A stretch of DNA of 57,774 nucleotides, the filler included, from Candidatus Desantisbacteria bacterium CG1_02_49_89 (GTDB taxonomy: Bacteria; Desantisbacteria; UBA1551), in assembly GCA_001871075.1 (NCBI GenBank). It is 4 parts of 4 records of this genome, joined end to end, with 100 filler letters (N's around TTAATTAATTAA, not from the genome) between each part and the next. Parts side by side here need not be neighbours in the genome. Positions count along the whole stretch, not along the records: positions 15,944 to 31,483 come from MNUP01000030.1; positions 31,584 to 45,898 come from MNUP01000073.1; positions 45,999 to 57,774 come from MNUP01000035.1; 1 more part is not named here. One strand, written 5' to 3'. Numbering within the stretch: the first letter of the stretch is position 1; every line of letters starts with the position of its first letter. Positions 26,501 to 47,924 of the stretch are shown here, piece after piece. The translations under genes and the position numbers were made by a program. The notes below the pieces were generated by a model. It made no database searches, was not told the origin of the DNA, and saw nothing but the letters and a program-made list of their open reading frames with translations.

Positions 26501-27621
26501 CCTGTTCCATCCATTCCGGGAAGGCTGTCCCTGAACACCGCGATGCTCCCGTTCTTCCCTTTTTCCACGTCAGGTTTCCCTCCGGGCATACCGCTCATCT
26601 CCTTTCCGGTTATCGGTATCGGCTCTGAAAACTGTATGGGCGCGAGCGGTTGCTGCCAGTCCTGCCCGAGCCAGGCGGCGATCACCACCTGCCCGGTTGA
26701 AAGGACCGGAGCAGTAAAAGAAAAAGTCGCCTTTCCTTTTCCTTTAACTTCCGGCGACTCTGATTTCAGAACGTTGTTGGACATATCCTTCATTTCGCAG
26801 TTCAGCCTTGCTTTTCCGGCTGAGGAAGGAATGCTGTATTCCACTGTTGTCATAAATTCCTTTCCTTCCACCACCTCGCCTGGCAGGTCTGCGATGGCGC
26901 AGGTTGCTTCCTTGCCGGGAGGCTCCCCGGATTCCTTAACTTCGGATTTCGAAAAAATCTCTAATTTTGACACTGATTCGACACTGATCTTACTGGTTTC
27001 TTCAGACTTGGAAGCTTCCTTCTTTTCTTCCTTCGGCTGGGGCGCTGATCTTTTCTCCACAACAGGGATAGGATCCGAGAATTTTATGGGGGCAACCGGG
27101 TTCTGCCAGTCTGTGCCGGCCCAGCAAGCCATGACTATTGCCTCCATCTGGTCCATTTTCGGCGCTACAAAAGTAAGGGTTTTCTCGCCCTTGCCCTTTA
27201 CCCTCGGGGACTGGGCTTTCAGGACATTGACGCTGTCCTTGTCCTTCATCTCGCACTGCAGGATCTGCTGGCCCGCGTCCTCGGGAATGTCGTATGAAAC
27301 CGTGACCTCGAACTTCTCGCCTTCGCCCACCTCGGACGGCAGCTTTGTGAATTCACAGGAAGCGTCTTCAGCCCAGCAAACCGTAGAAAGTGCCCACCCT
27401 GCGCAAAGGCAGGGCGAGGTCTCGCCCCGATATTGATCGGGGCGGATAAGGTGTAAGGTGTAAGGCAGGCAGAAACTAAAAGTTAAAACCAAAGGAATCA
27501 CCACGGAGGCACGGAGTCCCCTACAGCTCCGGAATAAAATCGGAGCTAAACGCAGGGACCTTCGGGTCAGAACGGAGTTAATGACCCTACGGCACGGAGA
27601 AAACACAGGTCTTTTCTTCAA
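23554..27621 (-). CDS. Large secreted clan-A glycoside hydrolase, paralog of 19066-23022, with a repeat-expanded N-terminus
   Basis: GSNY, GINTFR.F, LGYDIQNEP, DFISHHVY and FGEFG motifs; two copies of the N-terminal domain. Start placed at the TTG 5 nt after GAGG (uncertain). Confidence 0.75.
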   Translation of the reverse strand: MKKRPVFSPCRRVINSVLTRRSLRLAPILFRSCRGLRASVVIPLVLTFSFCLPYTLHLIRPDQYRGETSPCLCAGWALSTVCWAEDASCEFTKLPSEVGEGEKFEVTVSYDIPEDAGQQILQCEMKDKDSVNVLKAQSPRVKGKGEKTLTFVAPKMDQMEAIVMACWAGTDWQNPVAPIKFSDPIPVVEKRSAPQPKEEKKEASKSEETSKISVESVSKLEIFSKSEVKESGEPPGKEATCAIADLPGEVVEGKEFMTTVEYSIPSSAGKARLNCEMKDMSNNVLKSESPEVKGKGKATFSFTAPVLSTGQVVIAAWLGQDWQQPLAPIQFSEPIPITGKEMSGMPGGKPDVEKGKNGSIAVFRDSLPGMDGTGIADAVVTGLRGSGFGVTVLDSEKIRNSSILNIENFDCLVIAGGADYFPASASASLLRFLTRGGDLVTLGGYAFKELVWNFNGKWMTKSQIEETISSVQPQNMLFDFEDEPSGWRRATNDVSTPGSLEADKGYKGKGAKIFIPGLTGWDNWSAGIDGSISEGQDLVCFWAKGSQRTKQIAVEIGERDGSRWIATVNMGTEWKHYCLLPEAFAYWKDNTSKGRGGKGDAVKLENASIISIGLAYSHTSVEGGQHEIWIDEVGIAKNPYPKMDLTARMKVPVFNDAYSAYVINDVAKAEINSAQALLESGLNLAGVTGGDFAIAYPNQTGGRYVPLINAYDKYGRYKGAIASMLVNYSKAMKNSVIACFGIKDPGFYKDPSFIPALSKIIGAMKNGLFLGSISPGRLTYEPGKEALFSARVCNLGSAAKQANAEISVVKDGKTVFSKAFEIGLEPGKNQAVECGWVTPMDAGSYMLRVVLRESGKGVSDIAEHMFDVAPMPPVQQGFMKVSADKKHLVYPDGKRFFCIGSNYHGWFDRCWNEWKEYFDPVKMELDFRKAHEAGINTFRLFLYKLADDIMKDDFHKIDIMLTFARRYDIHLLVHLARYGQMEKSQECIRKLCAHLKDEPMVLGYDIQNEPWLPAIIAEKYPAGIKLPITDIQDGVNKFGIYVGENLGEWTTFPKLKDNKVPMLDDEVVKAGDESFRIWIKLNKDAIREVDKNHLVTVGFNTPFSAFPCASELDFISHHVYVRPFSYDSVIQNITTFDRIAAVWPEKPVSFGEFGYSNGIMMGSRYLDFYSSAVGEMIHYLYPLSRGYEGSYKWMLNDNPNAWRGDDNFYEERFGFFYYDGTPFGHRKPIAHATQFLSEYINRAGPTGTMETAQAQNMIGTGYVFKGDKALFIGNTEYKSDGLQFKGGKPANVMLDWGSGKLKIMSTCDLQVKISPSKFLSTLKSGSKITGRNAGSKKDGDLLILDLLEGEAVTIQ
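27393..27446 (-). repeat. Double-hairpin element family A (54 nt, in-frame in a signal peptide)
   Basis: TCCGCCCCGAT-CAAT-ATCGGGGCGAGACCTCGCCCTGC-CTTTGC-GCAGGGTGGG; absent at the same site in the paralog. Confidence 0.92.
27518..27592 (-). repeat. Double-hairpin element family B, copy 3 (75 nt, in-frame)
   Basis: CCGTA-GGGTCA/TGACCC-GAAGG-TCCCTG-N5-AGCTCC/GGAGCT-GTAGGGG. Confidence 0.88.
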
Positions 27622-27839
27622 AGTTACCTCACAAAAATTACTTTTTAAACTACTTTTGCAACCACGAATTAGCACGGATTTCCACGAATTTCAAGCTTGT
27701 AAGCTTTGTAAACTACACTTGAAACCAAAGGTGAACACGGGTTAGATACATCAGGGCTGAAGCCCTGAGTTACAGTAAATTCCTTGCTGTTGATTCATAA
27801 CTCATAATTGATTTTGCCCGCTATGGTCTATGGACTGCG

Positions 27840-31019: not shown

Positions 31020-31062
31020 TGAGCCACCCCCATTAATATATTTTGAATATTTCTTATAGTGT

Positions 31063-31583: not shown

Positions 31584-32338
31584 AAAGCTTGAATAGCGCC
31601 AGATTGATTCAAGAGATAAACAGAATCGCCAATTGAGAATGTAGTTTGCTTTGGATTAAGAATTTTCATATCATAGTTGGAAGTCCATCCTTTGCCAAAT
31701 ATTCCAATCGCATCAGATTTACTGTTATAGGTCCTGGCAAGCTTTATATCTGGACCCCTGCCGCGTATTTCAAAATCCTTAACAGAAAAACAGAGGTTTC
31801 CGTTCAAGCTATTTACATTTCTAACCAATCTTTGAATTCCCCTTGCAGGCACACCTAGTGCGCTTGAAGAACTAAAATAGCATATTACTTCTACTGAACT
31901 GCTTAAGTCAATTTGTTGTGTGGTCTCATAAGGGTCACGCCCATTATAACTAACATTTATTTCATATTTACCTGTTCTTGTGGCTGTAAAAGTAGCGGTT
32001 GCTTCTCCCGAAGAATTGGTTCCAATAAAAGCATAATTTACTTTGGTTGGAAGGGGAGTTCCTCCCGCTGAAAGAAAATATCCTCCTTGCGCACTAGAAA
32101 GAAAAGTTAAACAAATACCTCGATATGGGTAACCTGATTTTGTCACTTTGGCTGTTATTGTACACACATCATCATTATAAATTACACTGGGTTTTACATT
32201 TACCACGAGCATATAGGACGCTTCGCTTGTAACTGCAATTAGCGTGAAAGTAAAAATAAAAAATAATACACTTACGAATGTATTTAAACTGAAGGAAGGA
32301 ATTTTCAACAAATAATGTTTTTTGCTATTTACTTTCAT
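31584..32338 (-). CDS. RHS/YD-repeat protein, N-terminal part (signal peptide, Ig-like domain, DUF6531); truncated at gap
   Basis: VNSLNGNL....KD..I.GRG..I.LARTYNS....G.FGKGW matches the DUF6531 pattern; visibly AT-rich. Confidence 0.82.
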
Positions 32339-32389
32339 TGCTTATCCTCATTACAATAATCTTCTGTTTTTTTATTCTCAGTTCAAAAT

Positions 32390-32438
32390 AAAAAAAGGCT
32401 CCAGTCCGCCACCAATGCTTTGGCGGATTCAGCGCCTT
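32390..32438 (-). terminator. Terminator-like hairpin plus T-run in the leader of the RHS gene
   Basis: Minus strand AAGGCGCTGAATCCGCCA...TGGCGGACTGGAGCC followed by 7 T, about 50 nt before the start codon. Confidence 0.5.
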
Positions 32439-32771
32439 GTGTTTGTTCCATAAATCCCGCTATTCTCCCTGACCGAAGCAGTATCCCAATTAGCATATAT
32501 CAGGATCTTCGGACAGCAATAGCCTAATTCTTCTATTCTTTTACTCAAAAACAAAAATCCCCCGGGCGTTTACAATATTAGCCCTGTTTGGCGCTCCTTT
32601 CTTTAAAACAGTTAAAAGTTAAAGGTTGAAAGTTACCCCTCTACTCCGATGTATCGGAGTCCCAGGGGGATCTTCGAAAAGTTGTAGGATTGGAGGAAGA
32701 GTAATCGGCAGAGATTTTAAGGATTAGGAAAATAAGTAAATAGGGAAGTTAAAGAAGTTGGGTATATATGT

Positions 32772-32799
32772 ATTATAATCCGAAATCGTTATTTGTCAA
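32772..32799 (-). promoter_or_regulatory. Sigma70-type promoter TTGACA-N16-TATAAT
   Basis: Minus strand CTTGACAAATAACGATTTCGGATTATAAT. Confidence 0.75.
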
Positions 32800-33117
32800 G
32801 AATAAAGGTGAATTTTATACGCAACAATGTCGGATAAATCCGACCGCTACAAAATCCCCCTTAATTCCTCTTTGAAAAAGGGGGAGATAGGAGGATTTGA
32901 AACGGAGTAGAGCCTTCTAGAGTAGAGCTTTAGGAGTAGACCCTTCAGGGTCGTAAAACAACGGGGCTGAAGCCCCTACTCCTAACACACGCAAACCTCC
33001 TTCCTTGAAGATTGGCAGCTTGCCCGCCGTAGCATCCGCAACCTTTCCGCGAATAGCGGAGAGCTAAGGTTGACGGAGTATCTGCGCAGGCGGGGGTCTT
33101 CGAAAAGGTTTGCCCTA

Positions 33118-33164
33118 TCCGCCCCGATGGACATCGGGGCGAGACCTCGCCCCAAAGGGGCGGG
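33118..33164 (+). repeat. Double-hairpin element family A (47 nt, intergenic)
   Basis: TCCGCCCCGAT-GGAC-ATCGGGGCGAGACCTCGCCCC-AAA-GGGGCGGG; splits the GCCCTA|C end of a REP. Confidence 0.9.
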
Positions 33165-33180
33165 CGATGCACGAGTCTGT

Positions 33181-34194
33181 CTATTCCCAGAACGCCGCGT
33201 ACATCGCGTCCGCGTTCTCTATGGGCACGTCTTTCGCGATCTCTCCCCTTCCGATAAACCCGCCGTTCTTCGCGTCGAATGTTTTTACCACCCTGCGCGT
33301 GTAGTCTCTTACCTCCGCGGGTTTCCCAAAAGGCAGGAAATGCTGCCTGTCTATATCCGAGAGTATCACGAGCCTCTTCCTGGTAAGAGCGGCAAGTTTT
33401 TCAAGGTCCATGCACGAAAACTGGGGGTTGAGGATGTTAAGGCCTATTTCCATGAAATCCGGGATTATTTCCATTATCATTCCATCGCTGTGGAAATGGG
33501 TATACGCGCCGGCCCCTCGCACCATGTCAAACAATTTTTTGTACCTCGGCTTGAAAAAATGTCTCCATTCCCTTGGGTTTATGATCAGCTGGACCTGCGT
33601 GCCCCAGTCATCGCTGTACGCCACGCAGTCCGGCTCAAGCAGGAGGACAAGCCGGGTCCCCCTAAGCATGTAGTCAAGCAGCATGTCCATCAGCTCGTAT
33701 ATCTCCTTCGGCTTTTCCATAAAATCCATCATCAGGTTCTCGTACCCCCGCAGGAACTGCAGGCGCTCGAACAGGTTGCCCAGCCCGTATGGCCCGGCGA
33801 AATAAAAATATTCCTCCTTGTGTTTTTTAACCGCGTCTCTGTTCCTGAGGACGTCTTCCTCTGAGGGAAGCGGGGGGAGTTTCAGGGATTTCAATTTGCC
33901 CCAGTCGCCAAGCGGCACTTTCAGCACCTGGCCGTGCATCCCCTCCTGCTCGTTGCCCCACAGCGTGCCCCAGCCGTCATAATGCTGCCCGTATTTATAT
34001 TCGGGAGGAAGGCTTTCCTTCGGCGGTATCCCGTGGACCGGCGGCCCGAAATCGTGGGGATATTTTTTATTGAACATATCTACAAGCGCCTGGTCGTGCG
34101 CGTAATACGCAGCGGGCAGAGCGCAGTGCATTATCGGTATTCTGTCCGGCGCCTCGAATTTCAGCGCTTTTAGAACCCTTTCCCTGCCTGTCAT
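33181..34194 (-). CDS. UroD/MtaA-CmuA-like protein (paralog 2)
   Basis: MT.RERV..AL....PDR.P, D.WGT.W, LRGYENL, SDDWG.Q and FHSDG motifs. Confidence 0.87.
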   Translation of the reverse strand: MTGRERVLKALKFEAPDRIPIMHCALPAAYYAHDQALVDMFNKKYPHDFGPPVHGIPPKESLPPEYKYGQHYDGWGTLWGNEQEGMHGQVLKVPLGDWGKLKSLKLPPLPSEEDVLRNRDAVKKHKEEYFYFAGPYGLGNLFERLQFLRGYENLMMDFMEKPKEIYELMDMLLDYMLRGTRLVLLLEPDCVAYSDDWGTQVQLIINPREWRHFFKPRYKKLFDMVRGAGAYTHFHSDGMIMEIIPDFMEIGLNILNPQFSCMDLEKLAALTRKRLVILSDIDRQHFLPFGKPAEVRDYTRRVVKTFDAKNGGFIGRGEIAKDVPIENADAMYAAFWE

Positions 34195-34204
34195 TTTGCC
34201 TCCG

Positions 34205-34987
34205 TCACCGCATCTCCTGCCCGCCGGTCACGTTGACCGCCTGCCCGGTCATATAGCTTGACCTGTCGCTTGCGAGGAACAGGGCTACCGAAGCCACGTC
34301 CTCCGGAGTCTGCGCCCTGCCCAGCGGGATCTTTCCCGCGAGATATTCTCTTACTTTCTCCGCGGGCATACCCCTTTTTACGGCGTATTGTTTCTGCAGC
34401 TCGTCCCAGTGGGGCGTAAATACTATTCCCGGGCAGACAGCGTTGACGTTTATTTTATAGGGGGCGAGGTCAAGTGCAAGCGACTGGGTAAGGCCTATAA
34501 CGGCGAATTTTGACGCGCAGTACGCAGCGAACCACGCGTTTGCGCTCTTGCCGGACTTGGAGCTCATATTTATTATTTTCCCGTATCTGCGCTCTATCAT
34601 CCAGGGAGTAAACGCCCTGCAGCACAGGAAAGTCCCCTTAAGGTTCACGCCGATGATCTTGTCCCAGATTTCCTCGGTCGTGTCCGTGAAGGGAAGGATT
34701 TTGGCGATGCCCGCGTTATTCACGAGTATGTCAAGCACAGGTCCGAACTTTTTTTCAACCGCCTGTTTCATTCCCCCGACTTCCCCGGAAATACTTACGT
34801 CCGCCCTGACTGCAAGGGAACGCCTGCCGGTTTTTTCTATCTCGTCCGCGGCTTTACGCGCGGTCTCAAGGCTCACGTCGTTCACGATGACGTCCGCGCC
34901 CTCTTGCGCAAACCTCAGCGCGATGGCTTTCCCTATTCCCTGCCCCGCGCCGGTCACCAGCGCAATCTTATCTTTCAACCTCTGCAT
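34205..34987 (-). CDS. SDR oxidoreductase, sorbitol-6-phosphate dehydrogenase-like
   Basis: TGAGQGIG, NNAG, SSKSGK, YCASKF and YMTGQAVNVTGGQ motifs. Confidence 0.9.
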   Translation of the reverse strand: MQRLKDKIALVTGAGQGIGKAIALRFAQEGADVIVNDVSLETARKAADEIEKTGRRSLAVRADVSISGEVGGMKQAVEKKFGPVLDILVNNAGIAKILPFTDTTEEIWDKIIGVNLKGTFLCCRAFTPWMIERRYGKIINMSSKSGKSANAWFAAYCASKFAVIGLTQSLALDLAPYKINVNAVCPGIVFTPHWDELQKQYAVKRGMPAEKVREYLAGKIPLGRAQTPEDVASVALFLASDRSSYMTGQAVNVTGGQEMR

Positions 34988-35138
34988 TCAAACCTCTCAA
35001 GATTAACCACAGAGACACAGAGGCACAGAGAACTACAAGTTTTTTTACAGGGAATTTATGAGAACTTAAAATGAATTCTTTTAGGTTCCCTGTGAAAAAA
35101 AGTTCTTCTCTGTGTCTCCGTGCCTCCGTGGTGAATTA

Positions 35139-36176
35139 TTACGGGTTTATGATTATTTTAAGGCCTTCTTTCTTTTTCATTGTTTCAAGCGCTTCGGGGA
35201 ATTTTGAGAGCGGGAACCTGTGTGTGATCAGGGCCTTGGCGTTAATTTTGCCGGAAGCCAGCATGTCAAGGGCGAGTTTCTGGTGAATGGCGCGCGAATC
35301 GGAACTGCCGCACACCCGCAGCTCCCTGTAATGGAGCAGGTTGGTGTGCAGGGTTGCGTACGGGTTGTCTTTAGGTATGCTTGAAAAGAAACTTATCCTC
35401 GCGCCTTTCGCGGCCATTTGGATGCTCTGCGCCTGCGCCTGCGCGTCCGGTGCCGCCACAATAACCGCGTCCGCTCCCCTTCCTCCCGTCAGATCCATGA
35501 CCTTTTTAACAGGGTCTTCTTCCTGGGAGCATATCGCGGCTTCAACGCCGAATTTCTTCGCGAATTCAAGCCTTGTCCTGGAACGCTGCACAAGTATCAC
35601 GCGTATTGCGCCTCTTGCCCTCGCGGTTTCAACATGCAGGTACCCGATGGGCCCTGCGCCTATCACGACGACCGTGTCCGCGGCGGTTATGCCGATTATC
35701 TCCTGCGCGTTTATAACGCACCCAAGCGGCTCTGAAAGAGAAGCCTCGTCGCTTGAAAGCCCGTCCGGAATCCTGAGGACGTTCCCCTGCGCTATCCCTA
35801 ACGGCGGTATCAGCATGTATTCCGCGAAAGCCCCGTCTATGGCGGTGCCTACGGGAATCAAGTTCTCGCACATATTCTGCAGGCCCTCCAGGCATAGAAT
35901 ACACCTGCCGCAGGGAATGCTGGTAGCCATCGTGACCCTTTCACCGATGCTGAACCCGGCCGCGCCGGTTCCGATTTCCGTTATCCTGCCGGCAAACTCG
36001 TGGCCCAGCACCAGCGGGGGCTTCATCCTGGGGTTGCCGTGCACGTAAGCCTTAAGGTCCGTCCCGCATATCGCACAGGACTCAACCCTGATAACGATAC
36101 CGCCCGCAGCCGTGGCGGGCATCTCCGCTTCCTTTACCGAAATCCTGCCCACGCCATCGTAAACAGCCGCCTTCAT
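35139..36176 (-). CDS. Zn-dependent polyol dehydrogenase (L-iditol/sorbitol DH-like)
   Basis: ICGTD, GHE, C..C..C...C structural Zn site and GAGPIG; start at MKAAVY. Confidence 0.9.
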   Translation of the reverse strand: MKAAVYDGVGRISVKEAEMPATAAGGIVIRVESCAICGTDLKAYVHGNPRMKPPLVLGHEFAGRITEIGTGAAGFSIGERVTMATSIPCGRCILCLEGLQNMCENLIPVGTAIDGAFAEYMLIPPLGIAQGNVLRIPDGLSSDEASLSEPLGCVINAQEIIGITAADTVVVIGAGPIGYLHVETARARGAIRVILVQRSRTRLEFAKKFGVEAAICSQEEDPVKKVMDLTGGRGADAVIVAAPDAQAQAQSIQMAAKGARISFFSSIPKDNPYATLHTNLLHYRELRVCGSSDSRAIHQKLALDMLASGKINAKALITHRFPLSKFPEALETMKKKEGLKIIINP

Positions 36177-36293
36177 TTTTACCCCGGGAAAATACGTTTT
36201 TGGCCCAAAAAAGCAAAAAGGGCCGGAAATACCGCGAAACACGCCATATTCTCCAGCCCTTCAGCTCTATTTTCCTTTCATATAACCTGATGG

Positions 36294-36971
36294 TTATTTG
36301 CCGGCCTTTTCCACCACGACATCCTTGAAAACGGCAACGCAGTCAGACGTTGAATTCGTCCACTTGCGCGCGCCTAACACTATCTTGCCCTTTGCCACGT
36401 ACGGCGCCTCGTTCCAGTCCTTGTCTTCCGCCTTCAGGACCTCCTTGCCGTCCAGGCTTATCGTTATCACGTTTTTGACCGCGGTTATCTTAAGGTCGTG
36501 CCACTTCGCGTCCCGCAGGGTCAGGTTCTCGCCTTCCGCTATCTTAAGCGGCGTGTCGTCGTTGGTGCCGACGCCCTCGGACATCTTGTGGATAAATATC
36601 CCGCGCGCCTAGAAAGCTATAGTGTACAGGTTCATTTCGTCCATGTACCTTATCCCTATCCACACGCCGTCCCTCCAGTCAGCGCCGGGAGAAGTCATTT
36701 TCAGCTTGCAGGAAAGCGAATAATCCGCCCAGTCTTCCTTGCCTGCTGACACCCCGACCACGTTCCAGCCGTCGTTCCCGCTGTTCTTAACCTCATACCC
36801 GTCAGCGGTAACCGCTGCCTCGCCGCCTTCCACTGTCCATGCCGGCGAACCGTCGCTGCCCTTGGCATACTTCTTGAAATCATCCGAAAAGAGCGGCGCG
36901 TCCGCGGCGAAACACCTTAACCACAGAGAACACAGAGACAAAACCAGGATCCCGGCCAATCTTTTTCTCAT
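36294..36971 (-). pseudogene. Secreted beta-sandwich (DUF1080/LamG-like) protein interrupted by one in-frame TAG at 36609-36611
   Basis: Track ORFs 36609-37043 and 36294-36584 are in the same frame and read ...YTIAF*ARGIFIHKMSEG...; LFSDDF, W.DY, WHDLKI, G.I.L and FKDV.V motifs span the stop. Confidence 0.75.
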
Positions 36972-37006
36972 ATCTCCCTCCCTTAAAATATGAACCCGTC
37001 CTTTTT

Positions 37007-38305
37007 TTAATACTGGCGGTATTTTATTGTGAGGTAGTCCCAATTTGTGTCTGTACTGTTCCTGGTATACCCTGTCACATACACATTGCCTGAGGAATCA
37101 ACTGCGATACCTCTGCCACCATCATCAGTTACCCCATTCCATACCTTCTGCCAGACAGTATTTCCATTTGTGTCATATTTTATTGTCAGGTAGTCCGAGT
37201 TTGTGCCGTTAGAGGAATACCCTGTTACATAGACATTGCCAGAGGAATCAACTGCGATGCCATAGCCATAATCAGCACCTATGCCATTATATGCCTTCTG
37301 CCATACAGTTTCCCCATCTGCGTTGTATTTTATTGTCAGGTAGTCATAGGTTGTACCGTTATAGAACTGCCCTGTCACATACACATTTCTTGAGGAATCC
37401 ACTGCGATGCCTCTGCCCCAATCATCATTTCCCCCATCCCACGCCTTCTGCCATACAGTTTCCCCATCTGCGTTGTATTTTATTGTGAGGTAGTCCTTGT
37501 TTGAGTTGCCAGTGGAATACCCTGCCACATATACATTGCCTGAGGAATCAACTGCAATACCATAGGCATCATCATCTTTTCCTAATCCCCTATCCCACGC
37601 CTTCTGCCAAACAATATTCCTTGCTGAATCGTATTTTATTGTCAGGTAATCCCAGTTTGTGTCTGTGCTGTTTCTGGTATACCCTGTCACATAGACATTG
37701 CCCGAGGAATCCACTGCGATGCCTCTGCCACCATCATCAGCTACCCCATCCCACGCCTCCTGCCAGACAAAACTCCCTGCTGAATCGTATTTTCTTGTCA
37801 GGCAGTCGTTCCCCGGGACTGCGCCGTTATAGGACCACCCTGTTACATATACGTTGCCCGTGTCGTCAACTGCAACGTCATAACCCCAATCATCACCACC
37901 AAACCCATTCCACGCTTCCTGCCACACAGTATCCCCGGTTGAGTTGTATTTTATTGTGAGGTAGTCCTTGTTTGAGTTGCCAATGGAATACCCTGTTACA
38001 TAGACATTTCCTGAGGAGTCAACTGCAATGCCATAGGCATCATCATCATTTCCTAATCCCCTATCCTACGCCTTCTGCCAGACAGTTTCTGCGTTTGTGT
38101 ATTGCACTGGTCCAGGCGTTGTTTCGCCACCTGTTCCTGTATCCGGAACTTTTGGGATTTTCCCCTCATCCTGGCCCTTCTTTATTACCTGCTCTGCTCC
38201 GCCTGATGAACCGAAGCCCACAAAGAAAGCATAAGAAGAAACAGTAACCAGTATTAAGTAGAAAGCAACTAACAGAAACACTAAAACCATAACTGACTTT
38301 TTCAT
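37007..38305 (-). pseudogene. Exported SBBP-type seven-bladed beta-propeller protein interrupted by one in-frame TAG at 38066-38068
   Basis: Seven IAVDSSGNVYVTG-type repeats in a single frame. WQKA*DRGLG at the stop matches WQKAWDRGLG in repeat 4, implying TGG>TAG. Confidence 0.85.
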
Positions 38306-38321
38306 TTTCTTCTCCAATTTT

Positions 38322-39230
38322 TTAAAATTTAATGTATACCTGCCCTAATTTCTTCCTCGCGTCGTCCTCCTCCCTGTAGAACATATTCTCTACCGCCGCG
38401 GCGATCTGGCCCGCGACCGCGGAAAGCATTGTCAGGTTCTTGTTCCTGTAACCTCCCGCTTTCTTTTTCCCCAGTATTATCAGCCCGATATCCCTGCTTC
38501 CTAATTTTATCGGGCTTGCTATCATGGAAAGGATCTCCGGCTCGGATTTTATCTTCCCGGACAGGCCTTCGGCTGCAGCGTCGTTCACTATCCTGCCCAC
38601 GGTTTCCTTCATCACGCTCTCCACCAGCCCGTTTTCAACGTCCGATATGCCTGCGGATTCCTTGACCGCGTATCCCTGCGAGAACTGGTTATGCAGGATG
38701 AATGCCGCGCAGTTTGAGCCTGTCGCGTTCAGCAGGGCATTGAGCGTTCCGGAGAGCAGCTCTTTCAGGTCGCGTGAGGAACCTATGGTCCTTCCGGTCT
38801 CGTAAAGCGCCACAAGCTCTTCGGTGGAGGACCTGAGCCGCTCGCTCATTATTTTTATCAGGAAAAACAGCAGCCTGGACGCGGTTTCGTAGTCGGTCCT
38901 GAGCATCCCCTCAAAAGCCCCGCGCTCTATGGCAAGGACCCTGACCTTTTCAAGCGCCTTGGCGTTGGCGGAATGGGGACCTCCGTCAAGCAGGGACATC
39001 TCGCCGAAGAAATCCCCCTGCTCTAATATCGCCAGCGCCTTGTCCTCTTTCCCCTCTATCTTTTTGCTTATGAGCACCCTGCCGGACTCAATGACGTAAA
39101 ATCTCCGGCCGGGTGTCCCTTCTTCAACTATCTTTTCTCCCTCGGAATATTCCTTCCTGGCTGCAAGCCCTAATATCTTCTTCTCGTCCTGTTCGCCGAG
39201 GTCGGTGAAGACCGATTTCAAAACGCTCAT
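38322..39230 (-). CDS. Cyclic-nucleotide-binding + GAF domain protein
   Basis: FYVI.SG.V and GDFFGEMSLLDG..SA (cNMP); SMIASP...IG.I.L...L.AVA.Q.A.A.EN (GAF). Confidence 0.88.
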   Translation of the reverse strand: MSVLKSVFTDLGEQDEKKILGLAARKEYSEGEKIVEEGTPGRRFYVIESGRVLISKKIEGKEDKALAILEQGDFFGEMSLLDGGPHSANAKALEKVRVLAIERGAFEGMLRTDYETASRLLFFLIKIMSERLRSSTEELVALYETGRTIGSSRDLKELLSGTLNALLNATGSNCAAFILHNQFSQGYAVKESAGISDVENGLVESVMKETVGRIVNDAAAEGLSGKIKSEPEILSMIASPIKLGSRDIGLIILGKKKAGGYRNKNLTMLSAVAGQIAAAVENMFYREEDDARKKLGQVYIKF

Positions 39231-40273
39231 CTTATAAGCCTCCTCAGCTCGTCCGGATTGCTGGATTTGGATATACCCTCATCGTATGAAATAAATCCCT
39301 TATCGTACAGGTCTTTTATCGCCTGTTCCATTGTTTTCATCCCGGCCTGGGTGCTGGTCTGTATGGCGCTGTATATCTGGTGGGTCTTGCCTTCCCTTAT
39401 AAGGTTCGCTATCGCGGGGTTGATAAGCATTACTTCTCTCGCCGCGACACGGCCTCCACCCACCTTGCTCAGGAGCTGCTGGGACAGCACGCCTTCCAGC
39501 GCCATTGAAAGCTGCGCCCTTATCTGCTGCTGCTGGTACGGCGGGAAAACGTCTATGATGCGGTCAACGGTCTGCGCCGCGTCTATGGTGTGCAGGGTGG
39601 AGAATATCAGGTGGCCTGTTTCCGCAAGGGTCAGGGCTGCGGCGATGGTCTCAAGGTCCCTCATCTCGCCCACAAGCAGCACGTCCGGGTCCTCCCGCAG
39701 CGCGTACTTCAGCGCGCTGGCAAAGGTTTTTGTGTGAATGGTCAGTTCCCTCTGGTTTATGATGGCTTTCCTTCTCTGGTAGATGAACTCAATCGGGTCC
39801 TCTATGGTAATTATGTGGCAGTTCCTTTCCAAGTTAATAAGGTTCAGCATCGCCGCCAGGCTGGTGGACTTGCCGCTGCCGGTCGGCCCGGTCACAAGCA
39901 CAAGGCCCCTGGGAAGCCTTGCCAGCCTGAAAGCCGCCTCAGGCATTTCTATCTCTTCCATCGTGGGGATAAGCGCCGGTATTGCGCGCAGGGCCGCCGC
40001 GATCCCGCCGGAGTCCATGTAAACGTTCACCCTGAAACGCCCGTTCGGCATGCCGTAGGAAAGGTCCAGCTCGTATTCGTTCTCGAACTTCTTAGCCTGA
40101 TCGCTGGTCAGTATGCTGTAAACAAGGCTGCGGGTTTCTTCAAACGTAAGAGGCTTATCCCCGAAAGGCAATAACTCGCCGCTTATCCTGAGCATGGGCG
40201 GCGAACCCGCGCTTATGTGTATGTCCGAAGCGCCTTTTTCCAGCGCTGCCTTTAAAATGGCATTCATATCCAT
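39227..40273 (-). CDS. pilT: Type IV pilus retraction ATPase PilT
   Basis: ASDIH, GPTGSGKST, TIEDPIE, LREDPD...GEMRD, AETGH..STLHT and ANLIRE motifs. Confidence 0.93.
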   Translation of the reverse strand: MDMNAILKAALEKGASDIHISAGSPPMLRISGELLPFGDKPLTFEETRSLVYSILTSDQAKKFENEYELDLSYGMPNGRFRVNVYMDSGGIAAALRAIPALIPTMEEIEMPEAAFRLARLPRGLVLVTGPTGSGKSTSLAAMLNLINLERNCHIITIEDPIEFIYQRRKAIINQRELTIHTKTFASALKYALREDPDVLLVGEMRDLETIAAALTLAETGHLIFSTLHTIDAAQTVDRIIDVFPPYQQQQIRAQLSMALEGVLSQQLLSKVGGGRVAAREVMLINPAIANLIREGKTHQIYSAIQTSTQAGMKTMEQAIKDLYDKGFISYDEGISKSSNPDELRRLIR

Positions 40274-40282
40274 TTTTTCCCC

Positions 40283-41521
40283 TTAGAAGTGGAGCTTGGT
40301 CTCTATCGAGGTTGAATTGATTCTCTGCCCGTCCGGCGCGTATTTCTGCGTGTAGACGTAGATGATGTCAACGTTCTCCGATACCCCGTAAGAAACCCTT
40401 GCCTGCATCATCTGGTCATCTGGTTTTTGCGGGACTGCGCCAAGGTTCTTATAGTCATAAGCCGCGCTGATATTGATGCGCTGCTTGGTAATGCTGAACA
40501 GGTTCTCGTTGAGCGTGAGCCCGGCGTGCAGCCACGGGCATCCTTCCATCTTGGTGCCGTCCGTGAACGCGTCCTCATACGAAACAAGGATATACACCGC
40601 GTTCATTATGCCGAAGTTCAGCTCCCCGTACCACCCGTTATACCTTTCGGTCGTGGATTTAACGAGCTTGGGTTTGCCCATTTCATAGTAACCGTCAAAA
40701 TACCGCGGGCTGAAATCCGCGCCTAAGTTGCGGTACTCAAACCTGTAGTCTATGGAGAACCATTCCCAGCCTTTGCCGCCCATGAACCCTGTCGCAAGCC
40801 CGTTGCCGTGGCCAAGCATCTGGGCTACGTCAAGGTAGTAAGTGAGCCAGCCTTTTATGATCGGCAGGTCAAGGTCAGCGCCTATTATATTGACCTTCGT
40901 TTCCGGCACGTTGGCAAGCGCGTCCACCGCAACGCCCGTCTCCACGTCAGTCGCGTAACTTACGCCTATCGCAAGCTCGCTTAACACCGGGATATCGGAC
41001 CCTATGATCTTTAACGGCTTCACGTAAGGCCTCAGCCCGTAAACCGTGACCCTGTCCGGGAATATGTTGCTGAACACTGTTTCAAGCCCCCACTGCTCAA
41101 AATTCAGGTCCAGTTCAAGGCCTATGTTCCTGTAGGCGTTCAGGTACGCCCTCTGGTTCATATTTGAATACCCGCCCAGTATAAAACCGTGTCCCAGGGT
41201 CGCGGACTGCATGTCCCCGATCCTGAAATAAAGAGGGCTTGCGCCTTTCTCCGCCCACTGGATGAACAGTATGAGGTTCGCCCAGTCTTCCTTCTCCCAG
41301 AGCTTTATGCCGTCCGTGTCGTTCCAGGTCAGGCCCAGGTTGAGCCCGACCTTCAGCTTGTTGAATTTCATCACGGGCTGCAGCGCCACCCTGTACCACA
41401 TTTCTCCGTTTATGCTGATAGCGCCTATGGAACCGCCCATTGAAAAATTCTCGCCTGCTGAAGTTGTCAAGGGAAAAACCAATCCTGCTATTAATATGGA
41501 AAAAACGACTATGCGCTTCAT
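40283..41521 (-). CDS. Exported hypothetical protein, probable outer-membrane beta-barrel
   Basis: Signal peptide, alternating amphipathic strands, TLGHG.I...YSN motif and terminal Phe. Confidence 0.65.
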   Translation of the reverse strand: MKRIVVFSILIAGLVFPLTTSAGENFSMGGSIGAISINGEMWYRVALQPVMKFNKLKVGLNLGLTWNDTDGIKLWEKEDWANLILFIQWAEKGASPLYFRIGDMQSATLGHGFILGGYSNMNQRAYLNAYRNIGLELDLNFEQWGLETVFSNIFPDRVTVYGLRPYVKPLKIIGSDIPVLSELAIGVSYATDVETGVAVDALANVPETKVNIIGADLDLPIIKGWLTYYLDVAQMLGHGNGLATGFMGGKGWEWFSIDYRFEYRNLGADFSPRYFDGYYEMGKPKLVKSTTERYNGWYGELNFGIMNAVYILVSYEDAFTDGTKMEGCPWLHAGLTLNENLFSITKQRINISAAYDYKNLGAVPQKPDDQMMQARVSYGVSENVDIIYVYTQKYAPDGQRINSTSIETKLHF

Positions 41522-41564
41522 TGAAACCTCCCGTATAATATATTATAGTTCCATTATAGGATAT

Positions 41565-41592
41565 ATTATAACAAATTTATCCTGTTTGTCAA
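41565..41592 (-). promoter_or_regulatory. Sigma70-type promoter TTGACA-N16-TATAAT with extended -10 TG
   Basis: Minus strand CTTGACAAACAGGATAAATTTGTTATAAT, about 44 nt upstream of the 41521 start. Confidence 0.8.
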
Positions 41593-41688
41593 GCCCCGAC
41601 AGCTTTTGTCGGGGCGCAGACCCCCCTGTTTTATGCCGAAGGCATAGGAGGGGTCAAGCCCCAATGACTTTTGTCGGAGCGCCGGGGG

Positions 41689-42546
41689 TCAGTTAATTCC
41701 CAGTATCTTGTGGAACTGGGGAATAATCCTGACGTCTTCCAGGCTGTGCCCGGCGATCCGCTGGAATTCAAACAGGTCCTTATGGCGCTGCCCGGACGCG
41801 GGCTGGATAACCAGAGGGATCTTTCTGTCAACCCCGGCAACAAGAAGCGCTGCTTTTTCAATCTCCCGGGCGGTAGTCCTGCCTGTGACCACGACCTTCA
41901 CGAAAACCCTGTTCCCTGCCGCGCGCAGGAACCTTCGGTGTTTTTCCCACAGGTCTCTTCTACCTGTCGCGCTGGGGAATTTTATGTCCATTGCGACGAA
42001 ATCCACGTTTTTTATTATCCCGCGCAAGGCGGCAGGCAGCGTTCCGTTTGTTTCCAGGTAGATCCTGAAACCCAGGCCCTTCAGGTCCGGGATCAGTTCT
42101 TTCAGGAAATCCGCCTGCAGAAGCGGCTCTCCCCCGGTCAGGGAAATTGAATGATAGTGAAAAGTTGAAGGTTGCCCGCCCCGATTGATATCGGGGCGAG
42201 ATCTCGCCCCCGAGTAAGGGGCGGAAAAGTTGAAAGTTAAATACTCCTTCAAAACCGCGACAATATCTTTTGATGATATTGGATTTTTAAGTTTTAACCT
42301 TTCCCGCCCAATCAAAACGATTGGGCGAGGTCTCGCCCGCTGAAAAGACGGGCGGAGACTTTTGCAATCTGTAATCTGCAATTTATTTATACAATACTCC
42401 TGTCGCTTCCAGGAAAACCGGCTGTCGCAGTAATCACAGCGTCGAAGATTGCAGCCGGAGAAACGGATGAATATCTGCCTGACGCCGGCGTATATCCCCT
42501 CGCCCTGTATGCTGTCAAATATCTCCGCCACCCACGCGCTTCGCAT
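41689..42546 (-). CDS. queE: 7-carboxy-7-deazaguanine synthase (radical SAM) with two in-frame hairpin insertions
   Basis: EIFDSIQGEG...G.RQIFIRF.GCN, SLTGGEPLLQ, LETNGT, MDIK and R.IPQ.HK motifs. The start could be the GTG at 42576. Confidence 0.88.
   Translation of the reverse strand: MRSAWVAEIFDSIQGEGIYAGVRQIFIRFSGCNLRRCDYCDSRFSWKRQEYCINKLQITDCKSLRPSFQRARPRPIVLIGRERLKLKNPISSKDIVAVLKEYLTFNFSAPYSGARSRPDINRGGQPSTFHYHSISLTGGEPLLQADFLKELIPDLKGLGFRIYLETNGTLPAALRGIIKNVDFVAMDIKFPSATGRRDLWEKHRRFLRAAGNRVFVKVVVTGRTTAREIEKAALLVAGVDRKIPLVIQPASGQRHKDLFEFQRIAGHSLEDVRIIPQFHKILGIN
42175..42225 (-). repeat. Double-hairpin element family A (51 nt, in-frame in queE)
   Basis: TCCGCCCC..GGGGCGAGATCTCGCCCCGAT..ATCGGGGCGGG inside an AAAGTTG heptamer array. 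Confidence 0.9.
42303..42356 (-). repeat. Double-hairpin element family A (54 nt, in-frame in queE)
   Basis: TCCGCCCG..CGGGCGAGACCTCGCCCAATC..GATTGGGCGGG. Confidence 0.9.
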
Positions 42547-42583
42547 AGTGATTGTTTCATTAGTCCGATTGCCCACAAACTAT

Positions 42584-43666
42584 TTACAACAGGTTTATCG
42601 GGTATCTGCCGAACTCATGGACTGTCCTGTAAAACGCCAGAATGTTCTCAAGCGGCGTGGAGGGCGTTACCTCGCTGGATGAACCTATGAAATGCCCTCC
42701 TCCGGCAGAAGCATCTCTTATGCAATTCTTCACAGCTTCAATGACCTGTTCCTTCGTTCCCAGCGGAAGCACCTGCGAACAGTCCACGTTGCCCAGGAGT
42801 ATAAGCTTCCCGTGGTATTTTTTCTTAAGCAGCGCGATATCCATGCCCGCTATAGGCTCTATGGGATTGAGCCCGTCTATGCCCGCCTCGATCATGTCGT
42901 CAAGTATCTCCATAACGTTCCCGTCGCTGTGGAACATAACCTTCACACCGTGCGCGTGAAGCGCGTCGCATACCCTTCGGAGCATCGGTATGAAGGTCCT
43001 GCGCAGAAAAGCAGGAGAGAACATCAGCCGCCCCTTGTACGCTATATCGTCCCCCACCATGCACAGCGGGCACGCTTTTGCTTCACCGGCAACCTGGGCG
43101 TATCTTACGTGCTCTTCGCATCTGTTGTCAAGAAGCCGCTGCAAAGCTTCGGGAGCGTCATAGATCGCAGTTGAAAAAGTTTCAAGCCCCATCACGCTGT
43201 ATGACGCGTGGAACCCGCATCCGATGCACGGCACGAACATTGTCTTGGGCGCGAAAGCCTCCTGGCAGGTTTTTAACCACGGCAGCCATGAGTTTTGGTA
43301 ATAGTCAATAGGGGGCGGCTGGAAATCAAACGCCTTCAGGTCTTCCATGGTTCTTACGGCGTGCTTTGTCTCCCACCTTGTCTGGCCTGACACCAGTGTT
43401 TCAACGCATCCAGCCTGCGTGCCCTGCCCGTTCTGTTCCTGCGAAAAACTCTCGCCGAAACCCCTGCACAGGTCTATCCCCAGCCCGTGGTACACCCTGA
43501 CATTCGCCTTGAGCAGGTCGGTCTCGCCCGGCGCAAAATGCTCAAGGGCGTACCTGTTGTCCATATAATCCCAGATCGGGACCCTGTCTGCTTCGCAGAA
43601 ATTTGCGGACTTCATTATCCTGTCGTATATTTTCGGGTCAACCAGCTTTTCGCTGTAAAATCCCAT
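42584..43666 (-). CDS. UroD/MtaA-CmuA-like protein (paralog 3)
   Basis: DRVP, MGLE.F, GDDIA, FHSDGN, GIDG.NPIEP and TPLENI motifs. Confidence 0.87.
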   Translation of the reverse strand: MGFYSEKLVDPKIYDRIMKSANFCEADRVPIWDYMDNRYALEHFAPGETDLLKANVRVYHGLGIDLCRGFGESFSQEQNGQGTQAGCVETLVSGQTRWETKHAVRTMEDLKAFDFQPPPIDYYQNSWLPWLKTCQEAFAPKTMFVPCIGCGFHASYSVMGLETFSTAIYDAPEALQRLLDNRCEEHVRYAQVAGEAKACPLCMVGDDIAYKGRLMFSPAFLRRTFIPMLRRVCDALHAHGVKVMFHSDGNVMEILDDMIEAGIDGLNPIEPIAGMDIALLKKKYHGKLILLGNVDCSQVLPLGTKEQVIEAVKNCIRDASAGGGHFIGSSSEVTPSTPLENILAFYRTVHEFGRYPINLL

Positions 43667-43741
43667 TTAAATCCCACCAGAAATGTCATTGCGAACGCAG
43701 TGAAGCAATCTCATATAGACTTCTACTTGATACTTGACTCT

Positions 43742-45898
43742 TTATTTTAGTATCAGCAGAAGCGCGGCGAGGGAGAAAAAGAAGATCGCGGTTATTATCT
43801 TAACAGGTATTATATTTTTCTGCGAGAATTCAGCGAACTTCTTTGAGCCGACCCCGAAATACGCGAGCAGAAATACTATAATGAGGGGAATGATGAACAT
43901 CAGGTTATAAAGAAAAAGATAGAAGTAAGCCTGCGCCGCGAGGGCCGGGTCCTTGGTCATAAAAGCAATGGTCGGTATGTATATCTGTCCCGTGCACACG
44001 GCTTCAAGCAAAGAAACAAGCAGTCCCGTGAAAAACGCCCCGGCTATGATCAAAGGCGCGTTTATGTTTTTCCTTATCCAGAAATGTATGCTTTCCTTGA
44101 CTGCCCGGGGAAGCTGGAGCGCTATCCTGCTCGAATCGCCGGTTTTCTTGTAGATATACGCGTCATACAGGCTCATGCAGCCCAGGAATACGGCAACGGC
44201 AAAAATGGCGTAGAAGATAGCGGAAGAAACAACCTTGAACGCGGATATGCTTTGCAGGACCTTAAAAAGCCCCACGCCAAGCATGTAATAAGCGGCAAAA
44301 ACCCCTGCCGCGAAAAATATCCCGTTCAGCAGTATGTCCCGCTTGCTCCTGCCCGCGTAGGTCAGGAAAGAAATAAAAAATATGATAGTCGCGAAAGCGC
44401 AGGGATTTATACCGTCGATAAGCCCAGCGGCTATCACGGCAAACGGGCCGAAAGACCTGAACCTGCGGGCTATCACGCTTTCAGTATTAGCGCCTGCGGC
44501 CTGAAAGGTTTCGGAAAGAGTCTTTTTAAGCGGCTGGGTCTTCTTGGCCTTAATCGCGGCAAGCTCTTCTTCGATCAATTTTTCGAGCTTTTTCTTTATC
44601 TCTATGCTGCCAAGCAGACACCTTCCGCCCACATAAGCTTCCATGGGCACGCTTTTCTTTATCCCGTATTTTTCTTCAAGGCCCACGAGCATCTCGTAAT
44701 TTTCTTTTTTCGAAATATCGAATTCTTTTATTTCGACAGCACCGCCGTATTTGACCCTGATCCCCGGCAGCAACCCTCCCCTTATTTCCTCGCACTGGCG
44801 GCATCCCGGCGAATAAAAATACATAACCTGCAACGCGCCTTTTTGCTGTTTGTTCGGAGTCACAAACTTTTGACTTTTACCTTTTACCTTTTGACTTTTG
44901 ACTTGTATCTTCTCTTCGATTACAGGCCTTTTCACCCTTCCCGTTATCAGAATTGAACTCACCTGCTGGGTCGGGTCATTCGTCTCTATGTATAAGTTAT
45001 AGATAAATGTTTCTCCGAGGACTTCTTCGGAAAAGAAAAACAACTTTATACCTGATTCCCCGAGCGGCTGAATACTGTCCGAGGCAGGAAGAGCGCTAAT
45101 GCATTCGCAGGAAGCCCTTATTTTCCTTAAAACAAGTGTGTCTGACCCGATGTTGCGGACAGGTATCTCGCTTTCAACGGTCCTGCCCTTCTCTATCTCG
45201 CCCCAGTCCAGCTCATCCGGGACCATGATGAACGGGATCGCTCTTCCAAGCTTTGTTTCCGGGACGACCTTTAACGCGGCGGTTTCAGGTGCTGCCGTTG
45301 CTGCAAGTCTTTTTGCTTCCTGCAAAACATCGTATTCCGCCACAAGCGCGGCGGTCTGCGTGTCATCCGAAACTTTGTCGTTAAGCAGCGTCAGCTTGTA
45401 ATCAGAAACCTTCAATATATAATCTTTTTTCTGGATATAGAGCTTGTATGTTGACTGGCCCGGGAACTGGACAAGGTTCGCTTTTGTCGCGATCTTATCC
45501 CTTGTAAGCGTGATCCTGCCCGCGTATTCGCCGTTTTTGCCTGCCTGGACGATAACTGCGTTCCCGGATTTAAGCGGTTTTTCCATCAGGGTCTGCGTGT
45601 GCCCGCCTACAATAATGTCTATTCCTTCCACCTCTTTGGCTAATTTTTCATCCCCTTCGTCTCCGAGATGAGAAAGCACGACAACAATGTCTGCCTTACC
45701 TTTTGTGTCAGCAATGATCTTTTTCAAAACCGCTGCCGGGTCAAGGATCACAAGCCCTTCGATCTTTTCTTTGGGGAAGAAAAGGAACGCCCTGTCATTC
45801 ACAACAGACGCTATCAGGATCTTAAATCCGCCTATATCCTTGATTATGTACGGCTTAGTAAATAATGGGGACTGTCCCGATTTTTGTAAGTCAAAATC
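43742..45898 (-). CDS. Multidomain protein: 5'-nucleotidase-like metallophosphoesterase part + DUF1573 Ig-like + thioredoxin-like CxxC + CcdA/DsbD-like TM domain (5' end truncated at gap)
   Basis: VVLSHLG...IDIIVGGHTQ...QAG..G (metallophosphoesterase); N.GSDTL.L...ASCEC (DUF1573); FYSPGCRQC; GLIDGINPCAF...EAVCTGQIY. The frame stays open to the gap. Confidence 0.82.
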   Translation of the reverse strand, partial: DFDLQKSGQSPLFTKPYIIKDIGGFKILIASVVNDRAFLFFPKEKIEGLVILDPAAVLKKIIADTKGKADIVVVLSHLGDEGDEKLAKEVEGIDIIVGGHTQTLMEKPLKSGNAVIVQAGKNGEYAGRITLTRDKIATKANLVQFPGQSTYKLYIQKKDYILKVSDYKLTLLNDKVSDDTQTAALVAEYDVLQEAKRLAATAAPETAALKVVPETKLGRAIPFIMVPDELDWGEIEKGRTVESEIPVRNIGSDTLVLRKIRASCECISALPASDSIQPLGESGIKLFFFSEEVLGETFIYNLYIETNDPTQQVSSILITGRVKRPVIEEKIQVKSQKVKGKSQKFVTPNKQQKGALQVMYFYSPGCRQCEEIRGGLLPGIRVKYGGAVEIKEFDISKKENYEMLVGLEEKYGIKKSVPMEAYVGGRCLLGSIEIKKKLEKLIEEELAAIKAKKTQPLKKTLSETFQAAGANTESVIARRFRSFGPFAVIAAGLIDGINPCAFATIIFFISFLTYAGRSKRDILLNGIFFAAGVFAAYYMLGVGLFKVLQSISAFKVVSSAIFYAIFAVAVFLGCMSLYDAYIYKKTGDSSRIALQLPRAVKESIHFWIRKNINAPLIIAGAFFTGLLVSLLEAVCTGQIYIPTIAFMTKDPALAAQAYFYLFLYNLMFIIPLIIVFLLAYFGVGSKKFAEFSQKNIIPVKIITAIFFFSLAALLLILK

Positions 45899-47842: not shown

Positions 47843-47871
47843 TTCCCCCTCAAAGATTACCACGAAAGCAC

Positions 47872-47924
47872 TCCGCCCGTCTTTCAGCGGGCGAGACTTC
47901 GCCCACCCGGAAAGGATGGGCGAG
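47872..47924 (+). repeat. Double-hairpin element family A (53 nt, intergenic)
   Basis: TCCGCCCG..CGGGCGAGACTTCGCCCA..TGGGCGAG; splits CAC|GAAA of a CACGAAA array. Confidence 0.88.

Follow-up and report, generated by a model that had tools for sequence, protein, structure and literature searches.

A double-hairpin repeat of about 50 bases, seated in short repeats and in working genes, is described here from an uncultivated groundwater bacterium, Candidatus Desantisbacteria bacterium CG1_02_49_89. The DNA analysed, which we call the window, is a stretch of 57,774 nucleotides made of parts of four records of this genome joined end to end, and it holds five copies of the repeat. The core GGGCGAGRYYTCGCCC, allowing at most two mismatches, occurs at five places in the window (10 strand matches), as against a mean of 0.40 in 100 shuffles, none of which reaches 10. 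A covariance model (R1), trained on these five copies together with four foreign ones and run on the whole window with filters off, recovers exactly the five at 32-70 bits, the next match scoring 11.5 bits (E 0.47). The copies and the two reading frames concerned are as follows.

27393-27446, minus strand: copy 1, 54 nt, linker GACC on the minus strand (R1, 70.1 bits)
33118-33164, plus strand: copy 2, 47 nt, intergenic (R1, 59.7 bits)
42175-42225, strand undefined: copy 3, 51 nt, symmetric linker GATC, in frame in a QueE-like gene
42303-42356, minus strand: copy 4, 54 nt, in frame in the same QueE-like gene
47872-47924, plus strand: copy 5, 53 nt, intergenic, linker GACT, right end GGGCGAG (R1, 54.6 bits)
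23554-27675, minus strand: large open reading frame (ORF) that matches no Pfam family and has copy 1 in its N-terminal signal-peptide region; the position of its start is uncertain
41689-42576, minus strand: QueE-like radical SAM gene, with copies 3 and 4 in the part that separates its Cys and GGEP motifs

All five copies lie where the original prediction, made from the sequence alone, had put them, and have the lengths it had given. Its division into three coding and two intergenic copies holds for copies 3 and 4, inside the QueE-like ORF, and for copies 2 and 5, which are intergenic; for copy 1 it depends on the start call, as gene callers disagree and place the start of the 1373-amino-acid (aa) ORF either before or after the copy (P0124 vs P0125). 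Copy 1 sits within a heptamer array of CCTTACA type, located where that ORF encodes its signal peptide. Copy 2 is found 17 nt past the stop of a URO-D-family ORF (33181-34194, minus strand), nested in another dispersed repeat between ...GGTTTGCCCTA and CGA... Copy 3, which starts with CCCGCCC on the plus strand and whose end bases read T...G on the minus strand, is translated as the 17 residues SAPYSGARSRPDINRGG, while copy 4, adjoining a TGCAATC heptamer tract, is translated as LRPSFQRARPRPIVLIGR. Finally, copy 5 stands upstream of an ATG at 47842 (SPOR/TPR gene), within an 8-mer array of CACGAAAN.

An inverted pair of hairpins

Read in the orientation that gives a GAYY linker, the repeat has the frame T-CCGCCC-[tip]-GGGCGAG-AY-CTCGCCC-[tip]-GGGCGG-G, and the frame of the left half, when reverse-complemented, gives the right half. 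The element is an inverted, tail-to-tail pair of a hairpin unit, YC-CGCCC-[variable paired tip]-GGGCG-AGR, which resembles repetitive extragenic palindromes (REPs) and is joined to its partner without a spacer, the two 3-nt tails meeting as the central AGAYCT. The 5-bp feet, CGCCC/GGGCG, are near-invariant, and the tips differ in sequence and length yet stay paired. The frame that the original prediction had seen in the five copies is therefore borne out, with copies 1 and 4 on the minus strand in GAYY orientation and copy 3 symmetric in its linker.

Folded as single-stranded DNA (ssDNA), all five window copies form two side-by-side hairpins, with z-scores from -4.6 to -6.1. In an alignment of these copies with the four foreign ones, 93.3% of cells pair and 8 of 17 pairs show double changes, values that none of 500 shuffles attains. 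In the 92 distinct rows of the R1 alignment from metagenomes, which was model-fitted and hence leans towards structure, 94.7% of cells pair and there are 182 double-change cells against 52.5 in shuffles (0/500 as high); the inner stems thus covary, as expected of an element defined by its structure, which is what had been claimed. In one foreign copy (the second in L065), a single foot has changed to CGTCC/GGACG, which favours two separate hairpins over a cloverleaf. Solo hairpins with a real stem are absent from the window, and in 873,686 bases (metagenome loci listed below plus window) the real-stem candidates for solo units are halves of doublets missed by the first pattern. Being found only as a pair and never as a single hairpin, the element is in form a minimal doublet, like the REP doublets forming hairpins (REPINs) and the bacterial interspersed mosaic elements (BIMEs).

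A pattern scan of metagenome contigs gave at least 116 stretches (815,912 bases), and all census figures in this text are among the matches listed. The listed loci and the window hold 141 instances, plus 14 cores without placeable feet, and the instances reduce to 100 listed sites when those that share their 12+12-nt flanks are merged. In an independent run over 100 of the 116 loci, R1 yields 284 strand matches at E ≤0.001, with ends identical to those defined by the pattern. At the 100 listed sites, the linkers are AGACCT (62), AGACTT (27), AGATCT (10) and AAACCT (1), and the ends TCCGCCC...GGGCGGG (55), ...GGGCGAG (26), ...GGGCGGA (8), ...GGGTGGG (7) and others (4); lengths range between 44 and 68 nt and peak at 52, 54 and 47. 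A few tip modules (CGAT..ATCG, GTCTTTCAGC, ACCTGAAAGGAT, a minimal CAAAG, TGCCTTTGCGCA and others) recur in varied pairings and on either side.

Look-alikes are sporadic in Omnitrophota, Verrucomicrobia and Pirellulales. The frame is present in two Omnitrophota metagenome-assembled genomes (MAGs), one Verrucomicrobia MAG and one Pirellulales MAG, where R1 gives 42, 8, 4 and 4 strand matches, respectively, and R1 has no match in one Kuenenia genome. With strict filters and 37 candidates scored per genome, 3 of 151 Omnitrophota and 2 of 151 Verrucomicrobiota genomes are positive (E ≤1e-5), which is too few for an association test. Several high-GC metagenome contigs bear the element, and the plasmids, phages and viral contigs searched gave no match. 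A scan of genome contigs with a looser pattern was set aside, most of its at least 88 stretches being chance GC-rich matches. In the richest genome, the Omnitrophota G001, the double hairpin lies within a structured composite repeat of ~190 nt; this composite stands at five contig ends (L091, L093, L096, L099, L101), where it evidently breaks the assembly.

Evidence of exact insertion into arrays, repeats and genes

Sites that correspond to those of the copies and are free of the element exist within the window itself, as follows.

22929-22954, minus strand: empty paralogous site, the heptamer array of paralog 19066-23022 (minus strand) without the element; junction between 22940 and 22941
27751-27786, plus strand: element-free host repeat (...GCCCTGAGTTA before the junction, CA... 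after it), of the type that bears the copy-2 element at L116, L137, L140, L161 and L178
11226-11243, plus strand: element-free host repeat (CCACGAAAGCAC before the junction, GAAAA after it), of the type that bears the copy-5 element elsewhere

The 5' DNA of the tandem paralogs 19066-23022 and 23554-27675 aligns with one gap, of exactly 54 nt, which is copy 1 (TCCGCCC...GGGTGGG) and which sits within a heptamer array common to both genes, with nothing duplicated. At the protein level, the closest relative of the QueE-like product (P0005; 251 aa; 64% identity by BLASTP, 72% in the alignment) is without exactly the 17 residues of copy 3 and keeps, on either side of them, the heptamer-coded TFNF and Q.STF.YH. 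The arrays flanking copy 3 (42140-42175 and 42226-42245) encode these very residues and, since they are kept in an element-free relative, the in-gene arrays predate the element at this site. At copy 4, the same relative has a 16-column gap in more diverged surroundings, and ten further QueE relatives are without both inserted segments. The host repeat of copy 2 is present without the element in L175 (28/28 bases) and, at a tolerance of two substitutions, the element-free junction 28-mer is found elsewhere for 14 of the 100 listed sites. Two pairs of loci that had been considered as orthologous empty sites, L132/L175 and L191/L200, are on alignment paralogous host repeats and not one locus.

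The junctions are equally clean. Target site duplications (TSDs) were sought at the 100 listed sites, and direct repeats of two bases are found at 5 (3.8 expected), of three bases at none and of four bases at 1; flank and element end share a microhomology of at least 2 nt at 2 of 100 sites per side. In a strict test, a 7- or 8-nt array continues in phase across the junction at 14 of 99 listed sites, as against 26 of 1992 shuffled left/right pairs, and in 13 of these 14 the exact ends of the element give the best phase among 49 offset pairs. The original prediction had held that the element inserts base-exactly and without duplication into other repeats, so that its deletion restores the host unit; the paralog gap (copy 1), the QueE relative (copy 3), the empty host repeats (copies 2 and 5), the in-phase arrays and the lack of consistent TSDs all uphold it. 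We consider it likely that the element is mobile DNA and that it is inserted precisely.

It could be argued that no dedicated enzyme is needed, and that slippage, template switching or gene conversion between arrays or host repeats spreads the copies, with palindrome correction keeping the stems paired. Subtypes do correlate with flanks (19/19 of the largest cluster share one context), host repeats exist in filled and in empty form, hairpin modules have been exchanged between the left and the right side, and the G001 element rides in its composite repeat, all of which would fit such passive copying. However, one 54-nt variant (≤3 substitutions) is found in five unrelated flank contexts, including a Ddl gene and copy 1, the junctions are without microhomology, and the feet and linker are near-invariant across phyla, which protein recognition fits better than passive copying. 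Spread without an enzyme of its own is, in our opinion, improbable.

Genes offer a second view of these insertions. At 18 of the 100 listed sites, a reading frame runs through the element and stays open for at least 60 codons on each side, and the inserts there are of length 3n in 14 cases, 3n+1 in three and 3n+2 in one (these four non-3n cases may be spurious frames), as compared to 18/18/21 for the same classes at the 57 listed sites without a long frame and 40/34/26 at all 100. The ORF-spanned sites (14:4) thus differ from those outside ORFs (18:39; Fisher test, p 0.0008), which agrees with the earlier suggestion of a reading-frame filter. As an intact ORF can hold only a 3n insert, what this demonstrates is selection after insertion and not a property of the element. 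A design for read-through shows no sign, 55-88 of 100 listed copies being open in a given frame versus ~70 for shuffles. The T...G orientation is on the sense strand in 11 of the 14 3n cases. Separately, a rough orientation test on the listed loci has five copies in ORFs running in the same direction as the gene and none opposite, and, for copies outside ORFs, 10 with the local gene direction and 23 against it (p 0.035), 41 being mixed and 11 uncallable.

The interrupted genes are mostly of recognisable kinds. Ten of the 18 read-through ORFs were tested and eight have a Pfam family, namely HisF-like, B12-binding radical SAM, GH127, the aconitase family, D-Ala-D-Ala ligase (Ddl), tRNA U5-methyltransferase, the OmpA family and signal peptidase; in the first seven of these, the insert is found inside a host domain or between host domains. 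An AlphaFold model of the QueE-like protein (P0004) has a mean predicted confidence score (pLDDT) of 81 and just two stretches below 50, residues 60-81 and 108-128, which cover the inserts at 64-81 and 108-124. The QueE inserts are hence predicted to be loose, unstructured loops on an otherwise confident fold.

These same genes bear on another explanation, in which the element is a functional cis-acting sequence selected in place, with the 16-bp palindrome bound by a dimeric protein, or with a pair of RNA hairpins serving as terminator or stabiliser. The position of copy 2, 17 nt after a stop codon, is the usual one for REPs, and the core is a near-perfect palindrome, R1 scoring on both strands. 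But the element is in frame in at least eight Pfam-supported genes, seven times within or between host domains and twice in QueE, paralog and ortholog sites are without exactly the element, Rfam has no match for it, and its contexts are many and unrelated, all of which makes a cis-acting function very unlikely as an explanation.

As for the rest of the window, 7-10-nt tandem arrays fill most intergenic gaps (78 rows from TRF), and all ORFs that match Pfam in our scans are on the minus strand. The tandem paralogs (1318 and 1373 aa, minus strand) both match no Pfam family and both have heptamer-array-coded residues (LPYTLH...) in the signal-peptide region, where a third relative (P0127) has an ordinary signal peptide. 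The window contains three URO-D-family paralogs (5666-6676, 33181-34194 and 42584-43666), and this family recurs in the listed element-bearing metagenome loci, with 11 members in 10 groups below 85% identity. At 37067-38086, the repeats of an SBBP/NHL beta-propeller protein are encoded by a tandem repeat with a 150-nt period (6.6 copies).

How the element might move

With ~50 nt and no coding capacity, and no transposase among the 29 window ORFs scanned, the element is non-autonomous, as had been proposed. The best explanation overall is that it is probably a non-autonomous mobile DNA repeat of ~45-57 nt. By analogy with the IS200/IS605 insertion sequences (IS) and with REPs and their REP-associated tyrosine transposases (RAYTs), we suggest, tentatively, that it might be moved by a single-strand, hairpin-guided cut and paste, and the invariant feet, paired tips, exact ends and absence of duplication are as such transposition would give. 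In this scheme, an enzyme acting in trans would recognise the invariant hairpin feet on folded ssDNA and would cut and rejoin at the outer ends, like HUH transposases in 'peel and paste'. What the sites themselves show is that new copies enter base-exactly, with neither target duplication nor microhomology, and mostly in 7-8-nt tandem arrays and other small dispersed repeats; tandem arrays, when single-stranded or slipped, may offer the target. Some arrays lie within genes, and there it is mainly stop-free 3n copies that are seen, as predicted unstructured surface loops.

Several observations weigh against this explanation. Each of the five genomes tested has Y1_Tnp genes, even the one without the element, and no element hairpins are found near 12 Y1 loci (~3 kb each) of these genomes. 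Genes between element pairs are ordinary, and the gene families that recur near elements in the listed loci are ordinary paralog families, and none of this ties an enzyme to the element. A comparison of the gene neighbourhoods of the element in G001-G004 with those in the metagenome loci yielded nothing beyond a weak Fic-family match (28% identity), which lies 20 kb from any window copy and was judged a chance finding. The flanks have no fixed target word, unlike those of IS200/IS605: the last four bases on the left are GCAC at 15 listed sites, GTTA at 13, CTTT, ACTG and CCTA at 6 each, and others, and the sole preference is a C after the right end, at 45 of 100. The largest cluster, 19 near-identical copies of the copy-5 type with flanks identical in type, is always in a CACGAAAG context, between CACGAAAGCAC on the left and GAAAGCACGAAA on the right, and this host repeat also occurs empty; this tie between subtype and flank might reflect either the copying of composites or some unrecognised rule of target choice.

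The census itself is conditioned by a pattern that demands one hairpin tip of 10-13 nt, and the metagenome loci, having been chosen for holding the element, are unable to show empty alleles. Empty/filled polymorphism within one population was looked for in the assembled Logan contigs of four runs, compared with positions 31600-45890 of the window, clear of the paired stretches of N that it has at three places: joints that skip just copy 2, 3 or 4 are absent among the 15 of 20 joints listed, a result which, coming from contigs only, is no evidence either way. Contigs bridge copy 3 in the filled state (records 6 and 29), and those from many other copies pile up on the element, which makes them unusable for copy number.

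The original prediction had pointed to HUH enzymes of the TnpA or RAYT type as the mover, and this part of it finds no support in our results. In this reading, the element would be a true REPIN, a doublet mobilised by a RAYT encoded in the same genomes. Its occurrence as doublets only and its hairpin form would fit, and element-bearing contigs do encode RAYT-class Y1 proteins: on the NCBI RAYT model NF047646 (cut-off 80 bits), L149:861-1487 scores 95.3 bits, with L183 and L230 below the cut-off at 74.7 and 69.1 bits. Proteins of ~330 aa (L183:1421-2419, L230, L227 and L234) that combine a Y1 (HUH) domain with a DnaA-C-like helix-turn-helix retain the HUH histidines and the tyrosine; the L183 gene lies 8 nt behind another gene, in operon-like fashion. 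On the other hand, the L149 RAYT has inverted GTAG-tagged REPs from another family (GGAGTAGACCC...) on both sides and forms a canonical REPtron with them (L149:861-1640), and REPs of this type are also in the window:

32933-32952, plus strand: GTAG-tagged REP of a different family, of the type flanking the L149 RAYT and not part of the element

A canonical REP-RAYT pair thus exists in this community alongside the double hairpin and apart from it. (Copies of the L149-type REP, seen in the window at 32904-32955, belong to an intergenic mosaic at 32340-33180.) Neither a GTAG nor a CGTC tag is found at the outer edges at any of the 100 listed sites, the inner tails reading AGR, and the Y1 findings given above, loci without element hairpins and Y1 genes equally in an element-free genome, count against a REPIN as well. 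Y1-like genes detected by tblastn with Y1 products in six listed metagenome loci do not adjoin an element, and the IS200-like genes of L136 and L179 are more than 4 kb from any. Besides, REPINs are extragenic, and 18 of 100 listed sites are in ORFs. Taken together, mobilisation as a RAYT-dependent REPIN is unlikely. Finally, a full-length IS with the element's ends was not found in the 12 Y1 loci or the listed loci, the host genome being seen in part.

The interpretation of the original prediction as a whole is thus partly supported. A bolder possibility, which we regard as doubtful, is that of an enzyme-orphan class of mobile DNA, recognised by its structure and two invariant 5-bp feet, inserting without duplication, homing to short tandem arrays of any sequence (perhaps when slipped or single-stranded), moved by an undescribed hairpin-specific nuclease or transposase other than a RAYT, and distributed patchily in at least four phyla. 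Whichever enzyme is involved, a non-autonomous mobile repeat whose ends are known to the base from comparison with a paralog and an ortholog is a clean substrate for finding it, and would bear on the mobility of the smallest repeats in bacteria (REPs without RAYT, CGTC REPs, small dispersed repeats and Rickettsia palindromic elements). There are also practical consequences, since conserved enzymes (QueE, HisF-like, Ddl, the aconitase family and others) have gained loops of 15-19 residues in one step, and copies can mislead start-codon calls, as at copy 1, where two gene callers disagree.

Comparison with known systems

The original prediction did not recognise the element as a described family, and for the sequence this stands: Rfam gives no match over the whole window at the gathering threshold, and at E ≤1 over 42100-42420 only mir-962, with 18.4 bits versus a threshold of 70. 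Three 16-mers of the core were not found in the literature searched, a comparison that leaves aside ISfinder and the consensus sequences in the figures and supplement of PMC3733652. For the kind of element it does not stand, as the excerpts of PMC3733652 already describe similar repeats. The closest kinds are REP doublets (REPINs), intragenic REPs, Rickettsia palindromic elements (RPEs) and the small dispersed repeats (SDRs) of cyanobacteria.

Like REPINs and BIMEs, as they appear in the accessible portions of PMC3116915 and PMC3733652, the element is an inverted pair of hairpins in which the pair is the unit found, is non-autonomous and reaches high copy, with partners that have different stems or loops and with nesting in other repeats. 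Unlike them, the double hairpin has no GTAG tag, no spacer between partners and no RAYT gene that it flanks, 18 of its 100 listed sites are in ORFs, and its 5-bp feet are invariant with freely varying tips; from the definition of a REP or REPIN it therefore takes the imperfect palindromic hairpin and the doublet unit, and departs from it in tag, cognate RAYT and location. The same excerpts of PMC3733652 report REP dimers with partners 1-2 bp apart, heterodimers and REPs nested in other palindromic repeats, as well as intragenic dimers that encode 20-30 residues and two inserts in one gene, and name RPEs in this connection. Particularly close are the GTAG-17/19 dimers of Opitutus terrae (Di Nocera et al. 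2013, PMC3733652), which in the sections seen share tight partners, intragenic location, two copies per gene, nesting and a Verrucomicrobia host; the GTAG/CGTC end that defines them is absent in the double hairpin, which is set apart from them by description and not by consensus sequence.

Two further models do not fit. A miniature inverted-repeat transposable element (MITE) of the DDE type would combine inverted repeats at its ends with a TSD of fixed length, and no such TSD shows in the counts given above, and a motif related to Ssn (NTS/SRM, GTC tag; pattern from the available part of PMC11893778) matches none of the 100 listed sites on either strand.

RPEs resemble the element in behaviour, the sole level compared, being in frame in conserved genes and tolerated as an extra peptide. 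They measure ~100-150 bp, are known only from Rickettsia and have no known tie to tandem arrays. SDR4-6 of cyanobacteria are reportedly units of 21-27 nt, and to our knowledge no transposase has been assigned to SDRs. In the parts of PMC5861425 and PMC2884548 at hand, SDR4-6 share with the element that they are very small, structured, apparently mobile, located in heptamer arrays and nested, and the former, in the same parts, reports SDRs only in Nostocaceae. The double hairpin has their array location and differs from them in size (45-57 nt), in its non-cyanobacterial groundwater hosts and in being often in genes.

IS200/IS605 elements and their miniatures (mentioned in the available part of PMC11893778, and otherwise as generally known) offer a last parallel, with hairpins at both ends, no terminal inverted repeats (TIRs) of the DDE type, no target duplication and precise junctions. 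Unlike them, the element shows no fixed adjacent tetranucleotide at the listed sites, its hairpins stand 2 nt from the ends and leave no room for guide sequences, and no full-length relative with its ends was found. In conclusion, the double hairpin is real, well delimited and apparently new as a sequence, and belongs to a kind of small palindromic repeat that is already known.

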